This document shows positions 32,550-39,947 of a DNA stretch of 39,949 nucleotides, one piece after another (the first letter of the stretch is position 1; each line of letters opens with the position of its first letter). Source of the DNA: Bacillota bacterium (GTDB taxonomy: Bacteria; Bacillota_I; Bacilli_A; RF39; UBA660); the NCBI GenBank assembly GCA_022771715.1, contig JALELF010000054.1:1-39949 (forward strand), read 5' to 3'. The translations under genes and the position numbers were made by a program. Under the pieces are notes generated by a model, which was not told the DNA's origin, ran no database searches, and worked only from the letters and a program-made list of their open reading frames with translations.

Positions 32550-35228
32550 TCATCTTTCATAATTATCTAATTTATCACAATTATTCCAATCATCAGACAT
32601 AGCACAACTTGCGCTTACATCTTTAGATACAATAGCACTACTAATTCTTTCGGCAAGAGTATCTAAATTACTTGGCATATTATCAATAGAAAGACTATCT
32701 CCTCTTAAAAACTTACTCTTACATTCAGTTCCTTCTTTTCCTTTTTCACCATTACAGTATAAATAGAAGTCATCATAATTTGTTTGAGCATTATATTTTC
32801 TTATTTCTTTTATTGAAGCGGAATTAAGAGTAATTGTATACATTGGATCTTTCTTATATACACTATCTCCACTAGTATTTCTATTATTTAATATATACTT
32901 TTGAACATTTTCATTAGTATTTTTACAATCAGTCGTTTTATCCGAATTAATTATACACCAGTTTGAACCTGTATTTCTACCATTACCATCTATTGAAGGG
33001 AATGGACTAGTTAATGATATAGGTCTATATACTATTCTTACACTACCTAAATCGTACTCATCTTCTTTACATCCTTTACTTGGACAATAAGGAGAACCTT
33101 CTTTTACTTCATAATAACAATCATGTAATAATTGATTTTGACCTTCTGTACTTACCAAATCATTATCAGTTAATGAATGATTATAATTTCTAATTGCTGA
33201 TTGATATGCATTATATAAATAGTTTTTATAACCAATAGTTGTTATTTTAATATTTAATCCTTCATACTCTCCACCTGGTGTACTATAGTGTACTGGATAA
33301 TTAGCATGTCCAATATCTATAAATCTATTATATTTCTTATAGTCACCTACTGGCTCGGTTGATATTGATTCTCCACTTGGTAGTTTTACCCATCTATATG
33401 TATTATGATTTAATTCATACTCATAAGTTGCAACAAACACCTTATTATAAGCATAATTCCAATAATCTTTATAAGCTGTAAAGTTTTTAACTGCACAAAC
33501 AGGAGTTAAAATACCCAATTGACAAACAAATAAAGGTATTCCATCATAGCCAATTTTATAAGTACCTGAACCAAAACTATAATTTAAATTAATAGAATCA
33601 GAAATATTAGCTCTTTTAGGAATAATATTACTACTTCCTTTTTGTTCATTAACACGATTAAGTGTCTGTGTATAATTATATGGTGATTTAATATCATTAG
33701 TTCTATTATATTCTAAAGACAAATCAGAATCTAAATAATAATCAAATTTATCTATTTGAGTTTTACAACCTTTTAAAGTTTCAAGTAAATTCATTAATTT
33801 ATTTAATTTATTTTGAAGTTCTTTAGTATTTGTTTTATAACACTTGTTATTTGCCATATAATAGCCTGATGGACAAGTTGTACTTGAAACAGAAGTTTTA
33901 CCAAGATACTTTACATACTCAGGTATTTCAGAAGTAGATAATTCTGAGCCACCTTTTGTACATTTTCTTGTATAATGTTGCCATTCACATGGGGCACTAT
34001 CTTCTTTTTTACTAGAAATCTTACAAGGCGTATTGCCACAGTTTCTATTACAAGTATTAATTTTATCATAAGTCTTATTAGTGGCCTCGCATTTATATGA
34101 TTTAATAGTTTTAGTTGAACAACTAATTTTTTCATATTTACCAGTTACACCATCATTCTGACTAATTGGTTCATTCATATCATTAGTTGTTGTTGTAAAA
34201 TCTTTCTCCCAATGACAACAAATCTTCTCATATTCATATTGATATAGTTTCCTTACTTCATCACCATCTTCAACTCTAGGCGACCAATCAGTAGCAAAAT
34301 ACTCATTTAAATTCCAAGCATCACTTGCGCCAAATCCAGGAATATCATCATCAGAGAAATCTTGAACCATTTGACTAGTAATTACTCCAAATTTATTAGC
34401 GTATGATCCAGTTATATTTTGTTTGGTTGAAAAATAATAAACATATTTAGTATTCATTGCTGTTCCATCATTTTGATTAGGTTGAAACGCAGAATAATCT
34501 GCCCCTATTGTGTCAGCATCATATAATAAGTTTCCATCAATAGAAACACCCTTTTCTTTAAAGCGGTTAATATCACTCGCTCCAATATTAATAACCTTAG
34601 GGTTAGGCGTTCTATCAGAAAGTTTAAGTCCTGATTCATCATCACATTGCGCTCCTATACCACCCTTATATATAACAGATGTAACAATTGTTTTTACTTC
34701 TTCTTCTACATCTTTAAGAGCTTTCTTATAGTCAGCAATCCACTGATCTAAATCAACCTTAGTAGTACAAGATTTAATACCACTAAGCTTAACAGTTAAT
34801 CCATTTATTATATTATTATCATTATTTTTACCAATAGTCCAAGTAAAATTTCCTCCAGAATTAGCTACAGGAGCATATCCAGGAAATTCATAAGTATTTT
34901 TTTCCACACAATAAACAGGACAATACTTATTGTTCTCAAAAGTTGGTTTTATTTTGCTAATAATACTGTTAATATAATCTTTCATATCACTATCTGATAT
35001 ATTATTAAAATAGTCTTCAACACTTGAAAAATCAAAACCATCTTCAGTAATAATATTATCATACATTTCAAAAGATACATCATCTTTTACAATAATTTTT
35101 ACAGGACACTTTGATTCTTTAGTATCAGCGTCATTAGTTTTCTCTTCTGTAACATTAGCACCTAAAACAGTACGAGCGTTAAACAAAAAAAGAAACATAA
35201 AAAATATAATCATCTTATTTTTTTTCAA
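32550..35228 (-). CDS. Large secreted cysteine-rich protein of unknown function
   Basis: TTG start after AGGTGA, N-terminal signal peptide, about 28 Cys, no C-terminal TM or LPXTG anchor. Confidence 0.8.
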   Translation of the reverse strand: MKKNKMIIFFMFLFLFNARTVLGANVTEEKTNDADTKESKCPVKIIVKDDVSFEMYDNIITEDGFDFSSVEDYFNNISDSDMKDYINSIISKIKPTFENNKYCPVYCVEKNTYEFPGYAPVANSGGNFTWTIGKNNDNNIINGLTVKLSGIKSCTTKVDLDQWIADYKKALKDVEEEVKTIVTSVIYKGGIGAQCDDESGLKLSDRTPNPKVINIGASDINRFKEKGVSIDGNLLYDADTIGADYSAFQPNQNDGTAMNTKYVYYFSTKQNITGSYANKFGVITSQMVQDFSDDDIPGFGASDAWNLNEYFATDWSPRVEDGDEVRKLYQYEYEKICCHWEKDFTTTTNDMNEPISQNDGVTGKYEKISCSTKTIKSYKCEATNKTYDKINTCNRNCGNTPCKISSKKEDSAPCEWQHYTRKCTKGGSELSTSEIPEYVKYLGKTSVSSTTCPSGYYMANNKCYKTNTKELQNKLNKLMNLLETLKGCKTQIDKFDYYLDSDLSLEYNRTNDIKSPYNYTQTLNRVNEQKGSSNIIPKRANISDSINLNYSFGSGTYKIGYDGIPLFVCQLGILTPVCAVKNFTAYKDYWNYAYNKVFVATYEYELNHNTYRWVKLPSGESISTEPVGDYKKYNRFIDIGHANYPVHYSTPGGEYEGLNIKITTIGYKNYLYNAYQSAIRNYNHSLTDNDLVSTEGQNQLLHDCYYEVKEGSPYCPSKGCKEDEYDLGSVRIVYRPISLTSPFPSIDGNGRNTGSNWCIINSDKTTDCKNTNENVQKYILNNRNTSGDSVYKKDPMYTITLNSASIKEIRKYNAQTNYDDFYLYCNGEKGKEGTECKSKFLRGDSLSIDNMPSNLDTLAERISSAIVSKDVSASCAMSDDWNNCDKLDNYER

Positions 35229-35317
35229 TCATATCACCTATCTTTAAATAATAATCATTATTAGTATAGCATAGTTTTAATAAAATTTAAAAACTTTTTG
35301 TTCATTTTACGTAAAGA

Positions 35318-35340
35318 AAAAACCGCTTATTGCAGTTTTA
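35318..35340 (-). terminator. Intrinsic terminator after the lipoprotein gene
   Basis: AAAACTGC-AATAA-GCGGTTTT followed by further T. Confidence 0.55.
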
Positions 35341-36123
35341 TCTAACAAAAGTTGGTTTTACTAATTTTTTTTGATAATCAGCACTCATCTTTAATTCTAC
35401 AGTATTATCCTTATCACAAATTGCTTTTTCTTCTTCTGTAACAGTTACAGCATATGGATATAATAAGTTAACATAATGAGATGAGTTAATTCTTTCTCCT
35501 ACTTCATCAAATTCATAAGTGAAAATTCCTCTACCATTTTCTACTTCAATTGTTCTTAAAGAAACATAACTATCTTTAGCAGCAAAATTAGCATTTTCTA
35601 AAGGAATAATATTATCAACAACTCTAAATAATCCTAATTGTTTTAATTCTTCACATTTTTCTTTAGATAAGAAACAAACAAATTGAGTTTTATAATATGT
35701 ATCATCAATAGTTTTTTCTTCAGAATAAATTGGTATTAATAAAGAACCTTTCTTTGAAAGATATAAATGAGCATGATCTTCTTTTATATCACAAACTTCA
35801 TCACTACTGTATTTAACAGGAACAGTTTCATTAGACCATTCATAGTCATCGATAAATGAAGCTTCAGAAGCAAAAACTTTCTTATTGCCATTTTCATCTT
35901 CATAAACATGAGCATGTAATCCTGTCTCTTTACAACCATACATCATAAATTCTTCTTCAAAATATTCATAATCATTTTCATGACCTGTATATTCTATAAC
36001 AGTTGGAGTTACATATTCTACATCACTCTTTTCTGCCTTAACAAGTGCTGGTTTACATCCAGCTAGAGTAAGTGCTAAAAGCCCTGCAAATACCCTATTT
36101 TTTAAATTTTTTTTCTTTTCCAT
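35338..36123 (-). CDS. Putative lipoprotein with two C-x5-HAH(V/L)Y repeats
   Basis: Lipobox LAGC after basic and hydrophobic segments; repeats CKETGLHAHVY and CDIKEDHAHLY; SD GGGAGG. Confidence 0.7.
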   Translation of the reverse strand: MEKKKNLKNRVFAGLLALTLAGCKPALVKAEKSDVEYVTPTVIEYTGHENDYEYFEEEFMMYGCKETGLHAHVYEDENGNKKVFASEASFIDDYEWSNETVPVKYSSDEVCDIKEDHAHLYLSKKGSLLIPIYSEEKTIDDTYYKTQFVCFLSKEKCEELKQLGLFRVVDNIIPLENANFAAKDSYVSLRTIEVENGRGIFTYEFDEVGERINSSHYVNLLYPYAVTVTEEEKAICDKDNTVELKMSADYQKKLVKPTFVR

Positions 36124-36151
36124 AAATCCTCCCTTTTATTTATATGTAAAT

Positions 36152-36198
36152 AAAAAGCAGCAAAAACTAGACAGCATAAAGCTACCATTTTTTACTGC
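36152..36198 (-). terminator. Leader terminator/attenuator hairpin A
   Basis: GCAGTAAAAA...TTTTTGCTGC plus TTTTT, about 30 nt before the lipoprotein ATG. Confidence 0.7.
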
Positions 36199-36202
36199 AA
36201 AC

Positions 36203-36289
36203 TTATTTATTTTCATCACAATAGAAAACCCTATTTATCACTAAATAGTTATATAGACTATGATAATTTTTTAAACAAAGTATTTCCAT
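36203..36289 (-). CDS. Unannotated 28-aa leader peptide A (MEILCLKNYHSLYNYLVINRVFYCDENK)
   Basis: Promoter TTGACA-17 nt-TATTAT (36350-36322), SD GAAGGGG, ATG, and TAA 4 nt before hairpin A. Confidence 0.6.
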   Translation of the reverse strand: MEILCLKNYHSLYNYLVINRVFYCDENK

Positions 36290-36351
36290 ATAAAATCCCC
36301 TTCACATATAAATTGCCATCTATAATAATACAATTTTTTTATTTTGTCAAA

Positions 36352-37089
36352 TTAATTATAATTTTTAAATGATTCTAGTATTTTTTTAATATTTTCTTCA
36401 TTAAATGGTTTATTTAAAACATCAACTATATTATATCTAAATGCCTTATCAATTGTCTCCTTAGTATCATCACCTGTAATAACCGCAACTGGTATTTTAT
36501 AATTATTTTCTTTCAAATAATTTAAAACATCAAAACCATTAAAATTAGGCATAAATAAATCAAGCATTATTCCATATATATTAGGATTTTTTTTAATTAT
36601 TTCGACAGCCTTATTACCATCTTCAGCATTTAATATAGCAAATTCATTACTAATTGCTTTACCTATTAAATTTCTAATAAGCATTGAATCATCAACAATA
36701 AGTATTTTTTCTTTTTTAGAATCATCAGACGAACTATTTAAATACTGTTTAGCTATTTCAATATACTTTTTAGTTTCTTTTTCTAATTTATCATAATTGC
36801 TAAAAACAAAAGAAAAATCATTGTTTTTACCTGCCATTTCATTCTCATATGCTATATCAACTAAACTAGTAAAACCTAAATATCTAGCATCACTTTTAAT
36901 AGAATGAGCATACACCGCATAACTATTCATATCAGAACTTTCCTTACTTTTTAATAATTCGTTTAATTTTTCTGATATAGAATTTAAAAAATCAATCAAA
37001 GTTTCTTCATATGATTTCATATCACCAAACAATTCCAAACTTTTATCTAAATCAACATTATTATCTTTTAATATACTTATGTCTTTCAT
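36352..37089 (-). CDS. HPt-receiver (REC) phosphorelay protein with no output domain
   Basis: HPt motif AHSIKSDARYLG; REC motifs ILIVDDS, MLDLFMP, VITG and NKPF. Confidence 0.88.
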   Translation of the reverse strand: MKDISILKDNNVDLDKSLELFGDMKSYEETLIDFLNSISEKLNELLKSKESSDMNSYAVYAHSIKSDARYLGFTSLVDIAYENEMAGKNNDFSFVFSNYDKLEKETKKYIEIAKQYLNSSSDDSKKEKILIVDDSMLIRNLIGKAISNEFAILNAEDGNKAVEIIKKNPNIYGIMLDLFMPNFNGFDVLNYLKENNYKIPVAVITGDDTKETIDKAFRYNIVDVLNKPFNEENIKKILESFKNYN

Positions 37090-37111
37090 AATAAATCCCT
37101 CTCTTTAATAC

Positions 37112-37160
37112 AAAAAAACAGCAAAATTAGACGGCAAAGCACCTATCAAATTTTACTGTT
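37112..37160 (-). terminator. Leader terminator/attenuator hairpin B
   Basis: ACAGTAAAATT...AATTTTGCTGT plus T run, about 22 nt before the HPt-REC ATG; homologous to hairpin A. Confidence 0.7.
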
Positions 37161-37244
37161 TTATGATTTAAGGGCACAAAAACCTAAGTTTAATGAAAAA
37201 CTTAAATATTCAAATATATATTTTGAATAATATCTTCGTGCCAT
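37161..37244 (-). CDS. Unannotated 27-aa leader peptide B (MARRYYSKYIFEYLSFSLNLGFCALKS)
   Basis: Promoter TTGACA-17 nt-TATGAT (37292-37264), SD AAGGTGA, ATG, and TAA abutting hairpin B. Confidence 0.6.
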   Translation of the reverse strand: MARRYYSKYIFEYLSFSLNLGFCALKS

Positions 37245-37319
37245 ATAATCACCTTACATATCAATCATAAAATATTTATATTATTTTGTCAATAATCAAT
37301 TTTTAAATTTAACAATTGC

Positions 37320-39449
37320 TTAACACTTATTTAAATAAGAATTTATAATATTAATTACATTATTTATTTCATCAATTAAATATTTATAATTATTTTTAAC
37401 AAAAGCTTTATTATCATAATTATCTACTAAATCTTTAGTTATTTTATGTAACTTAGTAAAACCCAAATATCCACAATCACTATTTATTTTTTGTAGAGAG
37501 TTTAAATAATTATCTTTACTTTTAATAACATCAAATTCTTTAACTAATAAATCATTAAAATCAATTAAAGAAGCATTATAAGTAGCAATATCACCAAACA
37601 TTTCTAAATCTACTTTAATACCATTATCTTTTAAAACATTATTTTTTCTAACATATTTAGATAAAACACTTTTTAACTTATCTCGTTCAATTGGTTTAGT
37701 TAAATAATCACTAAAACCAACTTCTAAATATCTGTCACACTTTCCTTCTATCGCATCAGCAGTAAGCGCTACTACTGGTGTAGTAACTGTTTCTCTTAAC
37801 TTTTTCAAAGTTTCAACTCCACCCATTTTAGGCATCATTATATCCATAAAAATAACATCGTATTTATTATTCTTAACTTTATCTAAACATTCGAACCCAC
37901 TCATTACACTATCTATATTAATGTTATAAGCTTTAAATATTTTATCAGCTACCTTAATATTAAGTAAGTTATCATCAACAACTAATACTTTTAATGAACT
38001 AAAATCAGTCACTTCTTCTTTCTTTTCTTCCTTAACAAAAACACTATTTCTTATTTTTTGATTTAAATATACTGTAAAATTAGAACCTTTGCCATACTCA
38101 CTTTGAACAGTTATTTTTCCACCCATTAATTCAACTAATCTTTTAGTAATCGCAAGTCCTAATCCTGTTCCTTCCAAAGTAGTATTTTTATCCTCATCTA
38201 ATCTTTGAAATTTTGTAAACAGTTTATCGATGTTTTCTTTTTTTATTCCTCTTCCCGTATCTTTAACAGATATTATTAAATTAGAATCATCACCTTTATT
38301 AACACAATTAACACTAAATTCAATTGAACCTTCCTCTGTATATTTTATGGCATTAGTAAGTAAATTAGTTACTATTTGTCTTAATTTACCACTATCTCCA
38401 TATAATGTTTCTGGTAAATCAACTGCAAATTGTGTTTTAAATTCAATATTCTTTTCTCCTAATCTTACTTTTGCCAATTTAGTAAGAACATCTAATACTT
38501 CACTAATATGATATTCACTATTAACAATTTCCATTTTATTCGCTTCTATTTTAGAAATATCTAATATACCATTTACTATTTCAAGTAAGGTATGACTAGC
38601 CAAAACAATATTATTAGCGTTTTCTTTAGCTTCTTCCAATGATTTAGCATCATTAATACATTCGCTAAAACCAACTATTGCATTTAATGGTGTTCTTATT
38701 TCATGAGACATGCTTGATAAAAAATCCGTCTTAGCATGATTTGCTTTTTCTGCCTGATCCTTAGCAAGCTCTAATTGATTTATTAATTTCATATCTGGAT
38801 TTTCGATTGTAAAAAACATAACTAAGTTATCAATTGTTAAACCAATTGAAATACAAATAATAAATGGGTTTCTTGAAAAAAGAAGTGCGATTGAAATAGC
38901 TGTTATAAGAATCATAAATACTGGAAAATGTTTTTTAGTTATATTTTTTATGTTCATTAAGACTATTAACAAAGCAAACATAATATAAGATACACAAGCA
39001 ATAATTGAAATATTAACTGCGTCTCCTTGAGCAGTTTGTCTTAAACTATCAAGCAAAACAATATTAATATCAGCTTTTAAAACAATTAAATAAACAAATA
39101 TATCAATAATTATTACTAGCCATGTCATTATTTTTAAATTTTTATTAAAGTTTTTCCTTTTTTCATATGTAATAATATATATATACAAAAATAAAGAAGA
39201 AGACCAAATAATTAAGAATAAATAATCAAGTTTATTTAATATGATTACTAACAACTCATTATAATTGGTATAGACATTAAAAAACAAGGAACTAACTAAA
39301 AGGCTATCAAAAAATATCGAAATAAGCATAATAGAATATAGTTTATTTTCTAACAAATTAACACGTTCTTTAGAAAAATATACAATTAATATTATTAAAG
39401 ATAATACTAACGCAATTACTGGCATATACAAATTTGGCATAAACAACAC
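37320..39449 (-). CDS. Membrane-integral hybrid sensor histidine kinase (multi-TM, HisKA, HATPase, REC, degenerate HPt)
   Basis: About 7 N-terminal TM helices; H-box MSHEIRTPLN; N/G boxes NLLTNAIKYT, DTGRGI and GTGLGL; REC motifs VDDN, FMDIMMP and TKP. The start may be ATG at 39440. Confidence 0.92.
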   Translation of the reverse strand: MLFMPNLYMPVIALVLSLIILIVYFSKERVNLLENKLYSIMLISIFFDSLLVSSLFFNVYTNYNELLVIILNKLDYLFLIIWSSSLFLYIYIITYEKRKNFNKNLKIMTWLVIIIDIFVYLIVLKADINIVLLDSLRQTAQGDAVNISIIACVSYIMFALLIVLMNIKNITKKHFPVFMILITAISIALLFSRNPFIICISIGLTIDNLVMFFTIENPDMKLINQLELAKDQAEKANHAKTDFLSSMSHEIRTPLNAIVGFSECINDAKSLEEAKENANNIVLASHTLLEIVNGILDISKIEANKMEIVNSEYHISEVLDVLTKLAKVRLGEKNIEFKTQFAVDLPETLYGDSGKLRQIVTNLLTNAIKYTEEGSIEFSVNCVNKGDDSNLIISVKDTGRGIKKENIDKLFTKFQRLDEDKNTTLEGTGLGLAITKRLVELMGGKITVQSEYGKGSNFTVYLNQKIRNSVFVKEEKKEEVTDFSSLKVLVVDDNLLNIKVADKIFKAYNINIDSVMSGFECLDKVKNNKYDVIFMDIMMPKMGGVETLKKLRETVTTPVVALTADAIEGKCDRYLEVGFSDYLTKPIERDKLKSVLSKYVRKNNVLKDNGIKVDLEMFGDIATYNASLIDFNDLLVKEFDVIKSKDNYLNSLQKINSDCGYLGFTKLHKITKDLVDNYDNKAFVKNNYKYLIDEINNVINIINSYLNKC

Positions 39450-39497
39450 TTCCTATACTAAAAAAATTATATAATAAAAAAAAGAAGAAAACAATAT

Positions 39498-39947
39498 CTA
39501 TTTCTTCTTATAGGTCTTATTTTCTAACCAAGGCATTACTTCTATTTCATCTTTAATTAAAGAATCCTTATAAACAGTAGTAGATTCTGGTTCTAAATAG
39601 AAATACTTTGTAGCTGTAATAGTATCATTAATATAATCATCCCAAGCTTCATACATGTTTTTACCATTTTTCATATATGAATAATCAGGATATTTTTCAA
39701 ACATATCATATTTTTCTAAAGCCATAACATCCCTTACTTTAGATACCATAACTTCTTTTCTTATCATACTAATTCTAGAAATTATTTTAGATACTTCTTT
39801 TATAGTTAACTTTATATCATCAGGTATATCTTTATATAATATAATATCTTGCAAGCCTAAAAATATATTATGAGCGTTTTGTTCTATTTCGTCAATATTT
39901 AAATTATTACTAATAATTATTTGTTTTAATTCTAATAAGCTATTTTT
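39498..39947 (-). CDS. Hypothetical protein, C-terminal part (runs off the window)
   Basis: The frame of the 118-aa track ORF stays open to the window edge; no recognisable motif. Confidence 0.6.
   Translation of the reverse strand, partial: KNSLLELKQIIISNNLNIDEIEQNAHNIFLGLQDIILYKDIPDDIKLTIKEVSKIISRISMIRKEVMVSKVRDVMALEKYDMFEKYPDYSYMKNGKNMYEAWDDYINDTITATKYFYLEPESTTVYKDSLIKDEIEVMPWLENKTYKKK

Follow-up and report, generated by a model that had tools for sequence, protein, structure and literature searches.

Anatomy of two leader cassettes

The window analysed here is a stretch of 39,949 nt whose minus strand carries, in order, kinase-HPt, L2, HPt-REC, L1 and lipoprotein. L1 (leader 1 cassette, 36124-36351) and L2 (leader 2 cassette, 37090-37319) are two diverged copies of a unit of ~200 nt. 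As a first-pass annotation of this DNA had noted, they precede unrelated genes, lipoprotein after L1 and HPt-REC after L2, and both of these genes are intact. In the direction of transcription, the features are as follows.

37320..39449, minus strand: hybrid histidine kinase gene (709 aa), with a polytopic membrane N-terminus and HisKA, HATPase and REC domains (Pfam)
About 37329-37640, minus strand: extra C-terminal HPt-like segment of the kinase (aa 604-707), paralogous to the N-terminus of HPt-REC
37264..37292, minus strand: cassette 2 promoter (TTGACA, 17 nt spacer, TATGAT; 11/12 consensus positions)
37161..37255, minus strand: SD2 (AAGGTGA, 37249-37255) with sORF2, 4 nt from SD to ATG
37161-37244, minus strand: sORF2, 27 codons, peptide MARRYYSKYIFEYLSFSLNLGFCALKS
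37111..37162, minus strand: terminator 2 (hairpin core 37119-37158, U7 tract 37112-37118)
36352..37089, minus strand: HPt-REC gene (245 aa; Pfam Hpt and Response_reg), its own SD directly after terminator 2
36322..36350, minus strand: cassette 1 promoter (TTGACA, 17 nt spacer, TATTAT; 11/12 consensus positions)
36203..36303, minus strand: SD1 (GAAGGGGA, 36296-36303) with sORF1, 6 nt from SD to ATG
36203-36289, minus strand: sORF1, 28 codons, peptide MEILCLKNYHSLYNYLVINRVFYCDENK
36148..36198, minus strand: terminator 1 (hairpin 36157-36198, U tract 36148-36156)
35338..36123, minus strand: lipoprotein gene (261 aa; lipobox LAGC), its own SD after terminator 1

The leader layout described in the first pass is real: in both copies, a near-consensus promoter is followed by a strong SD, an ORF of 27 or 28 codons, a stable hairpin running into a U tract, and finally the SD of the next gene. 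Of 50 promoter-like sites detected in 35000-39949, just 3 score 11/12. The word TTGACAAAA, earlier listed as part of the shared layout, proved to be a generic promoter word, with 42 sites in the genome. The sORF stop lies 4 nt (L1) or 1 nt (L2) before the hairpin, and from the end of the hairpin to the main ATG there are 33 nt (L1) or 29 nt (L2). Our promoter scan found no promoter-like site in these gaps, in line with the remark that they leave little room for a further promoter. Thus, as in leader-peptide attenuators, a short ORF (predicted to be translated) and a terminator stand between promoter and gene.

Both hairpins have the makings of intrinsic terminators, being stable, with G/C pairs at the base, and followed by UUUUUAUUU (hairpin 1) or U7 (hairpin 2). 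Folding energies are -18.7 kcal/mol for hairpin 1 (z -3.1 [-3.14]; 1/200 shuffles as good) and -17.9 kcal/mol for hairpin 2 (z -4.8 [-4.75]; 1/200). Hairpin 1 ranks seventh in stability among 355 terminator-like hairpins in the genome, and the core of hairpin 2 can be lengthened to 37115-37162 by A/U pairs. Both were recovered by a genome-wide terminator scan; a simple consensus scan lists hairpin 1 by its inner stem only.

The two leaders are related

Comparison of the whole leaders gave a z score of 7.3, with none of 300 dinucleotide shuffles aligning as well, and comparison of the hairpins alone gave 6.5 (0/300). Element by element, the promoters are identical in 30/41 columns (1/500 shuffles as good), the UTR/SD regions are alike to a degree reached in 1/500 shuffles, and the hairpins are identical in 39/55 columns (0/500). 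The homology of the hairpins, claimed previously by eye, is therefore well beyond chance. For the sORF DNA, likeness hardly exceeds chance, if at all (local z -0.4; global 52/88 columns, 29/500 shuffles as good), and the flanks upstream of the two -35 boxes show no significant likeness (660/1000 shuffles). A direct repeat (D2) which, together with the flank before the -35 box, might have signalled a duplication reaching further upstream was rejected on the latter figure. We read L1 and L2 as paralogous, now diverged copies of a single ~200-nt cassette.

The cassette is a two-copy case in one species

The genome is a 1.07-Mb draft of 95 contigs, estimated to be 91.6% complete. Within it, TGCYGTCTA and CAGTAAAA..TTTTGCTG each occur at these two leaders only, so the 3' strand noted earlier as shared is present at both hairpins and nowhere else. 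A genome-wide scan for an SD, an ORF of 12-60 codons and a terminator, outside long ORFs, returned exactly L1 and L2. There is no third cassette in the assembled genome, although, with 95 contigs, copies at contig ends are possible. Candidates from a first scan for sORF-terminator pairs (C20, C57, C47, C9 and C41) were set aside as ends of longer frames or as having room for a promoter, as was a weak third match of the covariance model (C20:21331-21380, E 0.08), which lies inside an open frame.

We then searched more widely. The covariance model, which scores hairpin 1 at 61.1 bits and hairpin 2 at 60.5 bits, found no match in any of three congeners. Across 150 other genera of the family the best match had E 0.001, and the best six matches inspected were ordinary gene-end terminators. 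Pattern scans of public genome and metagenome contigs gave no strict matches and nine loose ones, all unrelated (36-51% GC). The first-pass annotation had recognised neither a riboswitch nor a T-box here, and indeed no Rfam family matches the leaders: a permissive scan of 35000-39949 gave three matches at E<=10, of which the sole one inside the leaders was mir-4703, whose 25.5 bits fall short of its gathering score, 88.

The cassette does not look like a MITE or other dispersed repeat, elements that come in many copies with terminal inverted repeats and target-site duplications. It has two copies, and inverted repeats in its surroundings do not rise above what AT-rich sequence gives as background, 71 pairs being counted across 1351 nt. 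One such repeat, which pairs the 5' UTR of cassette 1 with its post-terminator spacer in the minimum-free-energy fold, was dismissed on this count. The cassette is a local two-copy case in one uncultured, small-genome species; it founds no RNA family, leaves the catalogue of such families as it was, and cannot be generalised. By the refutation criterion that the first-pass annotation itself set, the lineage-specific attenuator family proposed there fails, as no further copy was seen in the genome, the three congeners, the 150 genera or the public contigs, and the peptides are not conserved. For a leader-peptide attenuator, too, conservation is missing, with the covariance model finding these two copies only.

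Origin of the cassettes

The promoter, SD and ATG of L1 align with those of a lipoprotein paralog on another contig (C42) at 82% identity over 69 nt (E 3.5e-11), and the ATG of sORF1 occupies the position of the lipoprotein start codon in the paralogs. The distance from -35 to ATG is 61 nt in L1, compared to 58-59 nt in the C42, C88 and C80 genes, and TTGACAAAA lies 58-59 nt before the ATG in three other members of the family. Likeness continues downstream. The in-frame LKN ... NRVF of sORF1 resembles N-L-K-N-R-V-F of the family, the body of L1 is collinear with the first 57 coding nt of four members (8-29/400 shuffles as good), and the 3' arm and U tract of hairpin 1 match codons 10-16 of the C42 gene in 18/19 columns (2/300). 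On this evidence, the 5' part of L1 derives from a lipoprotein-family gene. The body of L2 showed no significant chaining with lipoprotein 5' coding sequence (19-172/400 shuffles). At the peptide level, likeness to lipoprotein-family N-termini is weak (sORF1, 120/3000 shuffles, owing to the NRVF match; sORF2, 559/3000). The Cys codon of sORF2 had been a candidate for a lipobox remnant; at the DNA level it aligns with the F-A-G codons of the family, not with the lipobox.

The lipoprotein (35338..36123) has no Pfam or NCBIfam match and was not found in 40 relatives at E<=1e-6; it belongs to a species-specific gene family. The 5' end of one such gene appears to be the source of the cassette, which retains its promoter, SD and start codon, with a body that is probably made of decayed signal-peptide codons and ends in a strong intrinsic terminator. 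L1, which still stands before a lipoprotein gene, would be the original copy.

A second line of evidence concerns the junction at which L2 sits. Residues 604-707 of the kinase match residues 5-118 of HPt-REC at 37% identity (own-genome tblastn, E 1.6e-11; when codon-aligned, 40% aa and 63% nt identity). Kinases that could be read whole in three other genera (G009, G021 and G017) are 603-610 aa long, and those of G009 and G017, the two genera with matches listed, end with REC. The kinase here is alone in having the extra HPt segment, which is placed directly before L2. In other genera, the kinase lies directly upstream of HPt-REC in 4/7 orthologous loci, where the gap is 32, 86 or 10 nt or, in the fourth, the frames overlap; these gaps are too small for a 230-nt cassette.

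The simplest origin of L2 would be a tandem duplication of the segment comprising the HPt-REC gene and L1, after which the upstream duplicate lost its REC part and had its HPt part joined to the kinase. This path is favoured by parsimony rather than proved, as the flanks upstream of the -35 boxes are not significantly alike and the L2 body does not chain. Neither the descent from a lipoprotein 5' end nor the arrival of L2 with a duplicated HPt segment had been noticed in the earlier reading.

The hairpin structure is conserved and the peptide sequence is not

If L2 arose with the duplicated HPt segment, the latter provides a yardstick for divergence. Identity between L1 and L2 is 73% in the promoter, 71% in the hairpin and 59% in the sORF body, compared to 63% in the co-duplicated HPt coding DNA and 54% at its third positions. 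Promoter and hairpin are thus better conserved than co-duplicated coding DNA; the sORF body is not, its pace of change being close to that of third codon positions. Pairing in the hairpin is kept in 24/24 cells, with 3/12 pairs changed on both sides, and random mutation at the observed divergence retained the stability of the partner in only 1-47 of 2000 trials. One caveat here is that, with only two sequences, covariation is low in power, a shuffle control matching the observed value in 62/500 trials. A strain SNP that turns the U.G wobble into U-A points the same way. The hairpin is structurally conserved, and the pattern as a whole is best explained by selection that maintains promoter, SD/start and hairpin and leaves the peptide sequence free.

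It is very unlikely that the cassettes are a decaying by-product, remnants that partial gene duplications left behind and that no longer have a function, whose downstream genes run on undetected promoters or are being silenced. Their limitation to one species and their construction from gene fragments fit this idea, as does variation in one strain, where all 4 SNPs within 2169 nt sit in the two leaders, indicating that these evolve faster than the flanking genes. Two of the SNPs fall in terminator 2, at 37122 (U.G wobble to U-A) and at 37139 (a loop position); the others are H10Y in sORF1 and a synonymous change in sORF2. However, promoter and hairpin are better preserved than the co-duplicated coding DNA, stem changes keep pairing, and both downstream genes are intact. 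Phase variation was considered too, with poly-A tracts of the promoter spacers and of lipoprotein codons 4-6 as the switches, and discarded, as no length variants were seen in 3 DNA-type runs.

The peptides themselves had been described as aligning without gaps and carrying four Tyr each. The four in-register identities are equalled by 2675/20000 shuffles and the BLOSUM62 local score by 1424/3000, and four Tyr per peptide is, by our estimate, near the expectation for AT-rich sequence. Neither peptide has a Pfam or NCBIfam match, and own-genome tblastn with the two gave nothing better than E 0.1. One property stands out: Cys lies exactly five residues from the C-terminus in both (chance estimated at ~2 in 27).

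Could the sORFs nonetheless be genuine small-protein or signalling-peptide genes, encoding for example ligands or modulators of the phosphorelay, with their position before the main genes incidental? The Cys register is compatible with this, each sORF has a strong SD and makes up a full transcription unit of a kind seen nowhere else in the genome, and they adjoin a hybrid kinase with a polytopic membrane domain. Moreover, downstream of the HPt-REC ortholog in G009 lies an ABC exporter that, by eye, starts with what we take to be a C39 peptidase domain. Yet the peptides show no likeness beyond chance and no family match, and the sORF body changes at about the rate of third codon positions. Hydropathy is low (GRAVY -0.13 and 0.13; maximum 15-aa window 0.51 and 1.22, compared to 1.6-1.8 for real signal peptides), no signal or membrane-spanning segment is evident, and neither sequence contains a double-glycine leader. 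Pfam searches of the 8 neighbouring ORFs revealed no AgrB-like or C39-type gene, and neither a family match nor a processing or export domain there points to a pheromone or bacteriocin precursor of the AgrD, ComC/GG-leader or SHP types. A type I toxin-antitoxin arrangement is likewise not indicated, the peptides not being hydrophobic and plus-strand promoter-like sites being at background. We consider signalling peptides, which the first pass had offered as an alternative, quite unlikely.

Might the transcripts instead be sibling small RNAs of ~140-170 nt from promoter to terminator, acting in trans and possibly dual-function? Promoter and terminator are both strong, and leader stretches of 147 nt are more stably folded than their shuffled versions (z -4.1 and -3.6). 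But folds outside the terminator differ between L1 and L2, Rfam has no match, and no conserved single-stranded seed is common to both except the SD region, making this highly improbable.

Stop codons close to terminators are the norm in this genome

The first-pass annotation proposed that a ribosome at the uORF stop, or an antiterminator protein, controls read-through. For the former, a ribosome at the sORF stop would, if RNA polymerase stands at the U tract at that moment, cover the 5' arm of the hairpin and allow read-through, and lagging translation would let the terminator form. Ribosome-dependent attenuators include amino-acid leaders of the trpL type and antibiotic-responsive uORF-terminator leaders of Firmicutes, and attenuation at rph-pyrE and pyrBI involves masking of the terminator by a ribosome near the stop. 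Li et al. (PMC4824070) showed for E. coli tR2 that shortening the distance between stop and terminator from 28 to 5 bp lowered termination from ~90% to <10% in a translation-dependent manner. The cassettes resemble these tR2 constructs in that only a few nt separate stop and hairpin, such that a close ribosome could block termination.

Strong SDs and short stop-to-hairpin gaps (4 nt in L1, 1 nt in L2) speak for ribosome gating, and a drifting peptide sequence is what one would expect if the act of translation alone counts. Both ORFs also run without interruption to the base of the hairpin and end within 8 nt of it, as only 1.3% and 3.2% of shuffles do (in L2 the other two frames contain 3 and 2 stops, compared to the terminal stop only in sORF2). 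This hints that translation as far as the hairpin matters, but less strongly than it might, since the frame descends from coding sequence. Against gating, ordinary genes of this genome have equally short distances: 21/87 gene-end hairpins start 0-5 nt from the stop, and 41/87 at -6 to +10 nt. The geometry reported earlier is thus correct, but it is no special mark. According to a review (PMC7858274), Johnson et al. 2020 took a short stop-to-terminator distance as a proxy for uncoupled 'runaway' transcription, in which terminators are unmasked; compared with the masking systems, the ordinary terminators here would point to uncoupled transcription of that kind. For genome scans, a caution follows: in small AT-rich genomes, a stop abutting a terminator is a normal gene end and not by itself a sign of attenuation.

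Nascent-RNA folds revealed no alternative antiterminator fold in either leader. The 5' arm was unpaired, or weakly and locally paired, opening the 3' arm costs 12.8-16.2 kcal/mol, and no alternative helix is common to L1 and L2. The cassettes share with leader-peptide attenuators the order of promoter, short leader ORF, intrinsic terminator and promoterless structural gene, but they differ in having no mutually exclusive antiterminator fold, a feature given as defining in PMC5314783. They also have no regulatory codons tied to downstream function (Tyr, at 4 each, is near the estimated AT-rich expectation), no link of the downstream genes to translation or amino-acid supply, and no conservation beyond one species. 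Ribosome gating, though possible in principle on E. coli precedent, is disfavoured by ordinary genes stopping 0-10 nt before terminators and by the lack of an antiterminator fold, and we consider it unlikely. As to protein antiterminators, CAT_RBD (BglG/SacY-type) had no match in the 91.6% complete genome, the control being positive in 4/14 genomes; in the ANTAR search the control had no match in any genome.

A proposed promoter-terminator module feeding downstream genes

We suggest that each cassette acts in cis. Its terminator would end the transcript of the upstream gene and also stop the majority of those that start at the strong promoter within the cassette. The gene downstream, which lacks a promoter, would be fed by the fraction that reads through, and read-through would be largely constitutive. 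Such a 'punctuation' module, a promoter plus attenuating terminator, would uncouple HPt-REC and the lipoprotein and set their levels. For this reading as a whole, a cis-acting promoter and terminator derived from a lipoprotein 5' end, duplicated, and feeding downstream genes by read-through, we put the chances at roughly one in two. It retains the anatomy, the hairpin homology and the absence of an Rfam match from the first-pass interpretation, and parts with its attenuator family, its peptide conservation and its support for signalling peptides.

A related scenario, in which a lipoprotein signal-peptide fragment was exapted into a mini-ORF and hairpin and copied into the phosphorelay operon as a young regulatory module, with sister attenuators responding to translation of the mini-ORF or with peptides feeding back on the kinase, seems decidedly doubtful. 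If the cis-acting module is the right reading, the locus provides a clear worked example of how a promoter-leader-terminator module can be built from a gene's own 5' end, and of how segmental duplication can then copy it into a two-component operon, whose genes are left apart here but adjoin each other in related genera. Metatranscriptome run X1 shares 6% of sampled words with this genome, and its contigs cover only fragments of the kinase gene.

In the enterococcal plasmid pCF10, prgQ encodes the peptide iCF10. As laid out in PMC8265641, prgQ-IRS1 consists of a promoter, a short peptide gene and the terminator structures IRS1/IRS2, at which short transcripts end, with longer transcripts feeding the operon; terminator formation is set by the antisense RNA anti-Q, and iCF10 is used as an inhibitor peptide. 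The cassettes are similar in combining a promoter, a short peptide gene and a terminator, but differ in that convergent promoters are not above background here (50 sites compared to 42.4 +/- 6.9 expected) and the peptides belong to no family. An ordinary small transcription unit offers a plainer comparison, sharing with the cassettes a G/C-based hairpin and U tract directly after the stop, as at many gene ends. Unlike such a unit, each cassette is followed 29-33 nt on by a promoterless gene, and the two stand as diverged paralogs before unrelated genes.

Two leaders with the same layout

Every gene in this region of the window is on the minus strand, in the order partial 149-aa ORF, 709-aa hybrid histidine kinase (HisKA, HATPase and REC domains), L2, 245-aa HPt-REC protein, L1, 261-aa lipoprotein, 892-aa Cys-rich secreted protein and parA/parB. 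L1 and L2 are leaders that each form one cassette of ∼200 nt, comprising a promoter, an SD, a short ORF (sORF1 or sORF2) and a terminator hairpin (hairpin 1 or 2) ahead of the main gene.

37329-37640, minus strand, kinase C-terminal segment, aa 604-707
37090-37319, minus strand, L2
36124-36351, minus strand, L1
35338-36123, minus strand, lipoprotein gene
32550-35228, minus strand, secreted protein gene

The anatomy proposed in the first-pass annotation (promoter, SD, ORF of 27–28 codons, stop 1–4 nt ahead of a hairpin, U tract) was borne out for both leaders. Each cassette promoter shares 11 of 12 positions with the sigma-70 consensus and has a 17-nt spacer; among 50 promoter-like sites in 35000-39949, three score as high. 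A strong SD and an ATG-started ORF follow, of 28 codons in sORF1 and 27 in sORF2. The 42-nt hairpin begins 4 nt (L1) or 1 nt (L2) past the sORF stop and is succeeded by the U tract, with folding energies of –18.7 and –17.9 kcal/mol (z = –3.1 and –4.8). The SD and ATG of the main gene lie 33 nt (L1) or 29 nt (L2) beyond the hairpin. This interval had been judged to leave little room for another promoter, and a promoter scan found no promoter-like site in it at either leader.

L1 and L2 are a species-specific pair

The likeness of the two leaders is real and non-random. Their alignment has a z score of 7.3, and that of the hairpins alone, which had been called homologous, one of 6.5; none of 300 dinucleotide shuffles did as well in the first case and none of 300 shuffles in the second. 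By segment, the promoter (30/41 columns identical) and the UTR/SD were each matched by 1 of 500 shuffles and the hairpin plus U tract (39/55 columns) by none of 500, while the sORF bodies are marginally alike (52/88 columns, 29/500). The reported gap-free peptide matches at Y9, Y13, N19 and F22 are literally correct but at chance level, since 2675 of 20 000 shuffles reach these identities; the BLOSUM62 local score of the two peptides was equaled by 1424 of 3000. Nor is the shared TTGACAAAA distinctive of the pair, being a common promoter word with 42 sites genome-wide.

We scanned the 1.07-Mb draft genome for an SD, an ORF of 12–60 codons outside long ORFs and a terminator no more than 15 nt from the ORF stop, and recovered exactly L1 and L2. 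A looser, earlier scan of the genome gave no other convincing case. The hairpin core and the TGCYGTCTA 3′ strand, which had been noted as common to both hairpins, occur twice each in the genome. The sole Rfam match inside the leaders was mir-4703, at 25.5 bits versus a gathering score of 88; at first pass the element had not been recognised as a known riboswitch or T-box. A 12-pair covariance model of the hairpin, built from the window copies (which score 61 and 60 bits), had no match in three other genomes of the genus. Matches at E ≤ 1 turned up in 34 of 150 genomes from other genera of the family (best E 0.001, 32 bits); the best six matches are ordinary terminators behind long ORFs, dissimilar in inner stem and loop. 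A strict pattern scan returned nothing from either genome or metagenome contigs, and a loose one returned four and five matches, respectively, all in unrelated contexts of 36–51% GC. The attenuator family that had been proposed thus fails by the refuting condition set out with it, for lack of copies beyond L1 and L2 in the genome, its three congeners, the 150 other-genus genomes and the contig collections: the cassettes are a species-specific pair of paralogous leaders, not a new RNA family.

L2 and a duplicated HPt domain

Orthologs of HPt-REC (42–53% identity) are present in seven other genomes, which cover six genera within the family plus one from a neighbouring family. In four of the seven a kinase lies directly upstream, with gaps of 32, 86 and 10 nt and overlapping frames in the fourth, so a 230-nt cassette has no room there. 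The kinase measures 603–610 aa in the three genera where it was read whole, versus 709 aa here, and REC is the end domain in the two genomes with matches listed (G009 and G017). The extra kinase segment here is a paralog of the HPt in the next gene, aa 5-118 of HPt-REC (37% identity, E 1.6e-11; codon-aligned to that gene's HPt, 40% aa and 63% nt) and ends 27 nt before L2 starts. The order HPt, cassette is therefore present twice at the locus.

The simplest account of L2, judged from these sequences, would be a tandem duplication of the HPt-REC gene together with L1, after which the upstream HPt copy would have fused to the kinase and the upstream REC copy been lost. This is parsimony rather than proof, because the sequences immediately ahead of the two –35 boxes show no significant likeness (660/1000 shuffles). 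The added HPt segment would appear to be a rewiring of the phosphorelay specific to this lineage.

The hairpin is conserved, the peptide is not

The coding DNA of HPt, duplicated along with the cassette, served as a yardstick (63% nt identity, 54% at third positions). Conservation exceeds this mark in the promoter (73%) and the hairpin (71%) but not in the sORF body (59%). In the 12 aligned hairpin pairs all 24 cells are standard, and three pairs have both partners altered: the basal G-C/A-U, a compensatory change already noted at first pass, A-U/U-A at level 10 and an inner-stem G-C/A-U. When the partners are slid by 1–3 columns, pairing falls to 38–58%; a shuffle control of pairing is weak with two sequences (62/500). 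Randomly mutating either hairpin to the observed divergence kept the stability of its partner in only 1–47 of 2000 trials.

Contigs from three runs of one study, all of near-identical strains, were also compared. One run, X4, differs at four positions within 35300-37468, all of them in the leaders (chance under uniform scatter, 0.002) and none in the lipoprotein or HPt-REC genes.

Differences in the X4 strain
37122, hairpin 2, common U·G wobble (also seen at first pass) to U-A
37139, loop of hairpin 2
36262, sORF1, H10Y
37173, sORF2, synonymous

Together, conservation, pairing and strain differences indicate that the hairpin fold is being maintained while the sequence of the peptide drifts freely. 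The sORF peptides show no sign of conserved function.

A lipoprotein gene start as the probable source

Over its first 69 nt, which run from the –35 box up to where sORF1 begins, L1 shares 82% identity with the stretch directly preceding a lipoprotein paralog on contig C42 (E 3.5e-11). This family has at least four genes in the genome (window, C42, C88 and C80), with one more promoter, the fifth, at the end of a contig; a search of 40 relatives at E ≤ 1e-6 gave no member.

Lipoprotein family
window 35338-36123
C42:4741-5530
C88:7132-7930
C88:7980-8019
C80:1-131

Its members share the promoter, the SD and the signal peptide MEKK.K.KNR[VI]FAG[FL]LA.TL.GC, with mature parts only ∼30–36% identical, a pattern that resembles variable surface-lipoprotein families. 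Several copies sit at contig ends. A7 runs occur within promoter spacers (window 36322-36350 and C42:4682-4710) and A8 runs at codons 4–6 in two of the genes; neither varied in length in the sequencing runs compared.

The distance from TTGACAAAA to ATG is 58–59 nt in three paralogs and 61 nt to the sORF1 ATG, which identifies the latter as the family's start codon; the real window lipoprotein gene uses a second SD/ATG downstream of sORF1. A weaker, collinear trace is the in-frame L-K-N ... N-R-V-F of sORF1 versus N-L-K-N-R-V-F in the family. The 3′ arm of hairpin 1 plus U tract matches C42 codons 10–16 (R-V-F-A-G-F-L) in 18 of 19 columns (2/300 shuffles). In chained alignments with the opening 57 coding nt of four members, the L1 body was equaled by 8–29 of 400 shuffles; the L2 body gave no significant result against lipoprotein 5′ coding nt (19–172/400). 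The origin of the cassette is well explained. Both sORF frames are open to the hairpin base; shuffles remain open as far and next meet a stop within 8 nt in 1.3% and 3.2% of cases, evidence that is weaker than its numbers because the frame is inherited from a coding region.

Possible mode of action

By its sequence, each cassette is a complete short transcription unit. Lacking a promoter in front of it, the gene downstream would have to be transcribed by read-through of the cassette terminator, which would also end the transcript of the upstream gene (the kinase at L2, HPt-REC at L1). As far as sequence can indicate, the cassette may be a cis-acting promoter-plus-attenuating-terminator module, a reading to which we give about even credence.

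Read-through could be constitutive or translation-sensitive; that translation of the sORF sets it, as in a ribosome-gated attenuator, seems to us the less likely. In favor of the idea are the E. coli constructs described by Li et al. (PMC4824070), where the ribosome translating up to a stop masks nearly all activity of a terminator 5 bp beyond; the cassettes are like these in geometry only. However, ordinary gene ends in this genome have the same layout: among 87 terminator-like hairpins genome-wide with the stop of an ORF of at least 100 aa no more than 150 nt upstream, 21 start 0–5 nt past the stop and 41 within –6 to +10 nt. According to a review (PMC7858274), Johnson et al. 2020 took stop-adjacent terminators as a proxy for uncoupled ‘runaway’ transcription, as in B. 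subtilis, whose terminators of this kind work unmasked. Folds of the nascent leader held no alternative antiterminator helix. Antitermination by a protein, the other control suggested at first pass, may be at work here; a search of the draft genome for CAT_RBD gave no match. One metatranscriptome covers this locus only with contigs that are fragments of the kinase gene.

Leader-ORF/terminator attenuators have the same architecture, but the cassettes are without their defining competing structure and conservation. The short gene behind the PQ promoter of pCF10 encodes the iCF10 precursor. In that prgQ-IRS1 system the short gene is followed by terminators gating the downstream operon, which recalls the cassettes, but an antisense RNA decides, as described in PMC8265641, and nothing of the kind is visible here.

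Other genes and leaders

The 892-aa secreted protein has no Pfam or NCBIfam match; contig C10 encodes a paralog of it (39% identity over ∼900 aa). Behind the HPt-REC ortholog of another genus lies, at L082 (G009:C36) 758-2749, a 663-aa protein whose N-terminus we take, by eye, to be a C39-peptidase ABC exporter, a hint that peptide export and the orthologous phosphorelays may be connected. A GGTGGTACCGCG-like motif occurs in leader terminators just ahead of gene starts at C80:4988-5060, C81:6587-6635 and C3:4103-4140; as GGTGGTACCGCG is the T-box motif, these are probably T-box leaders.
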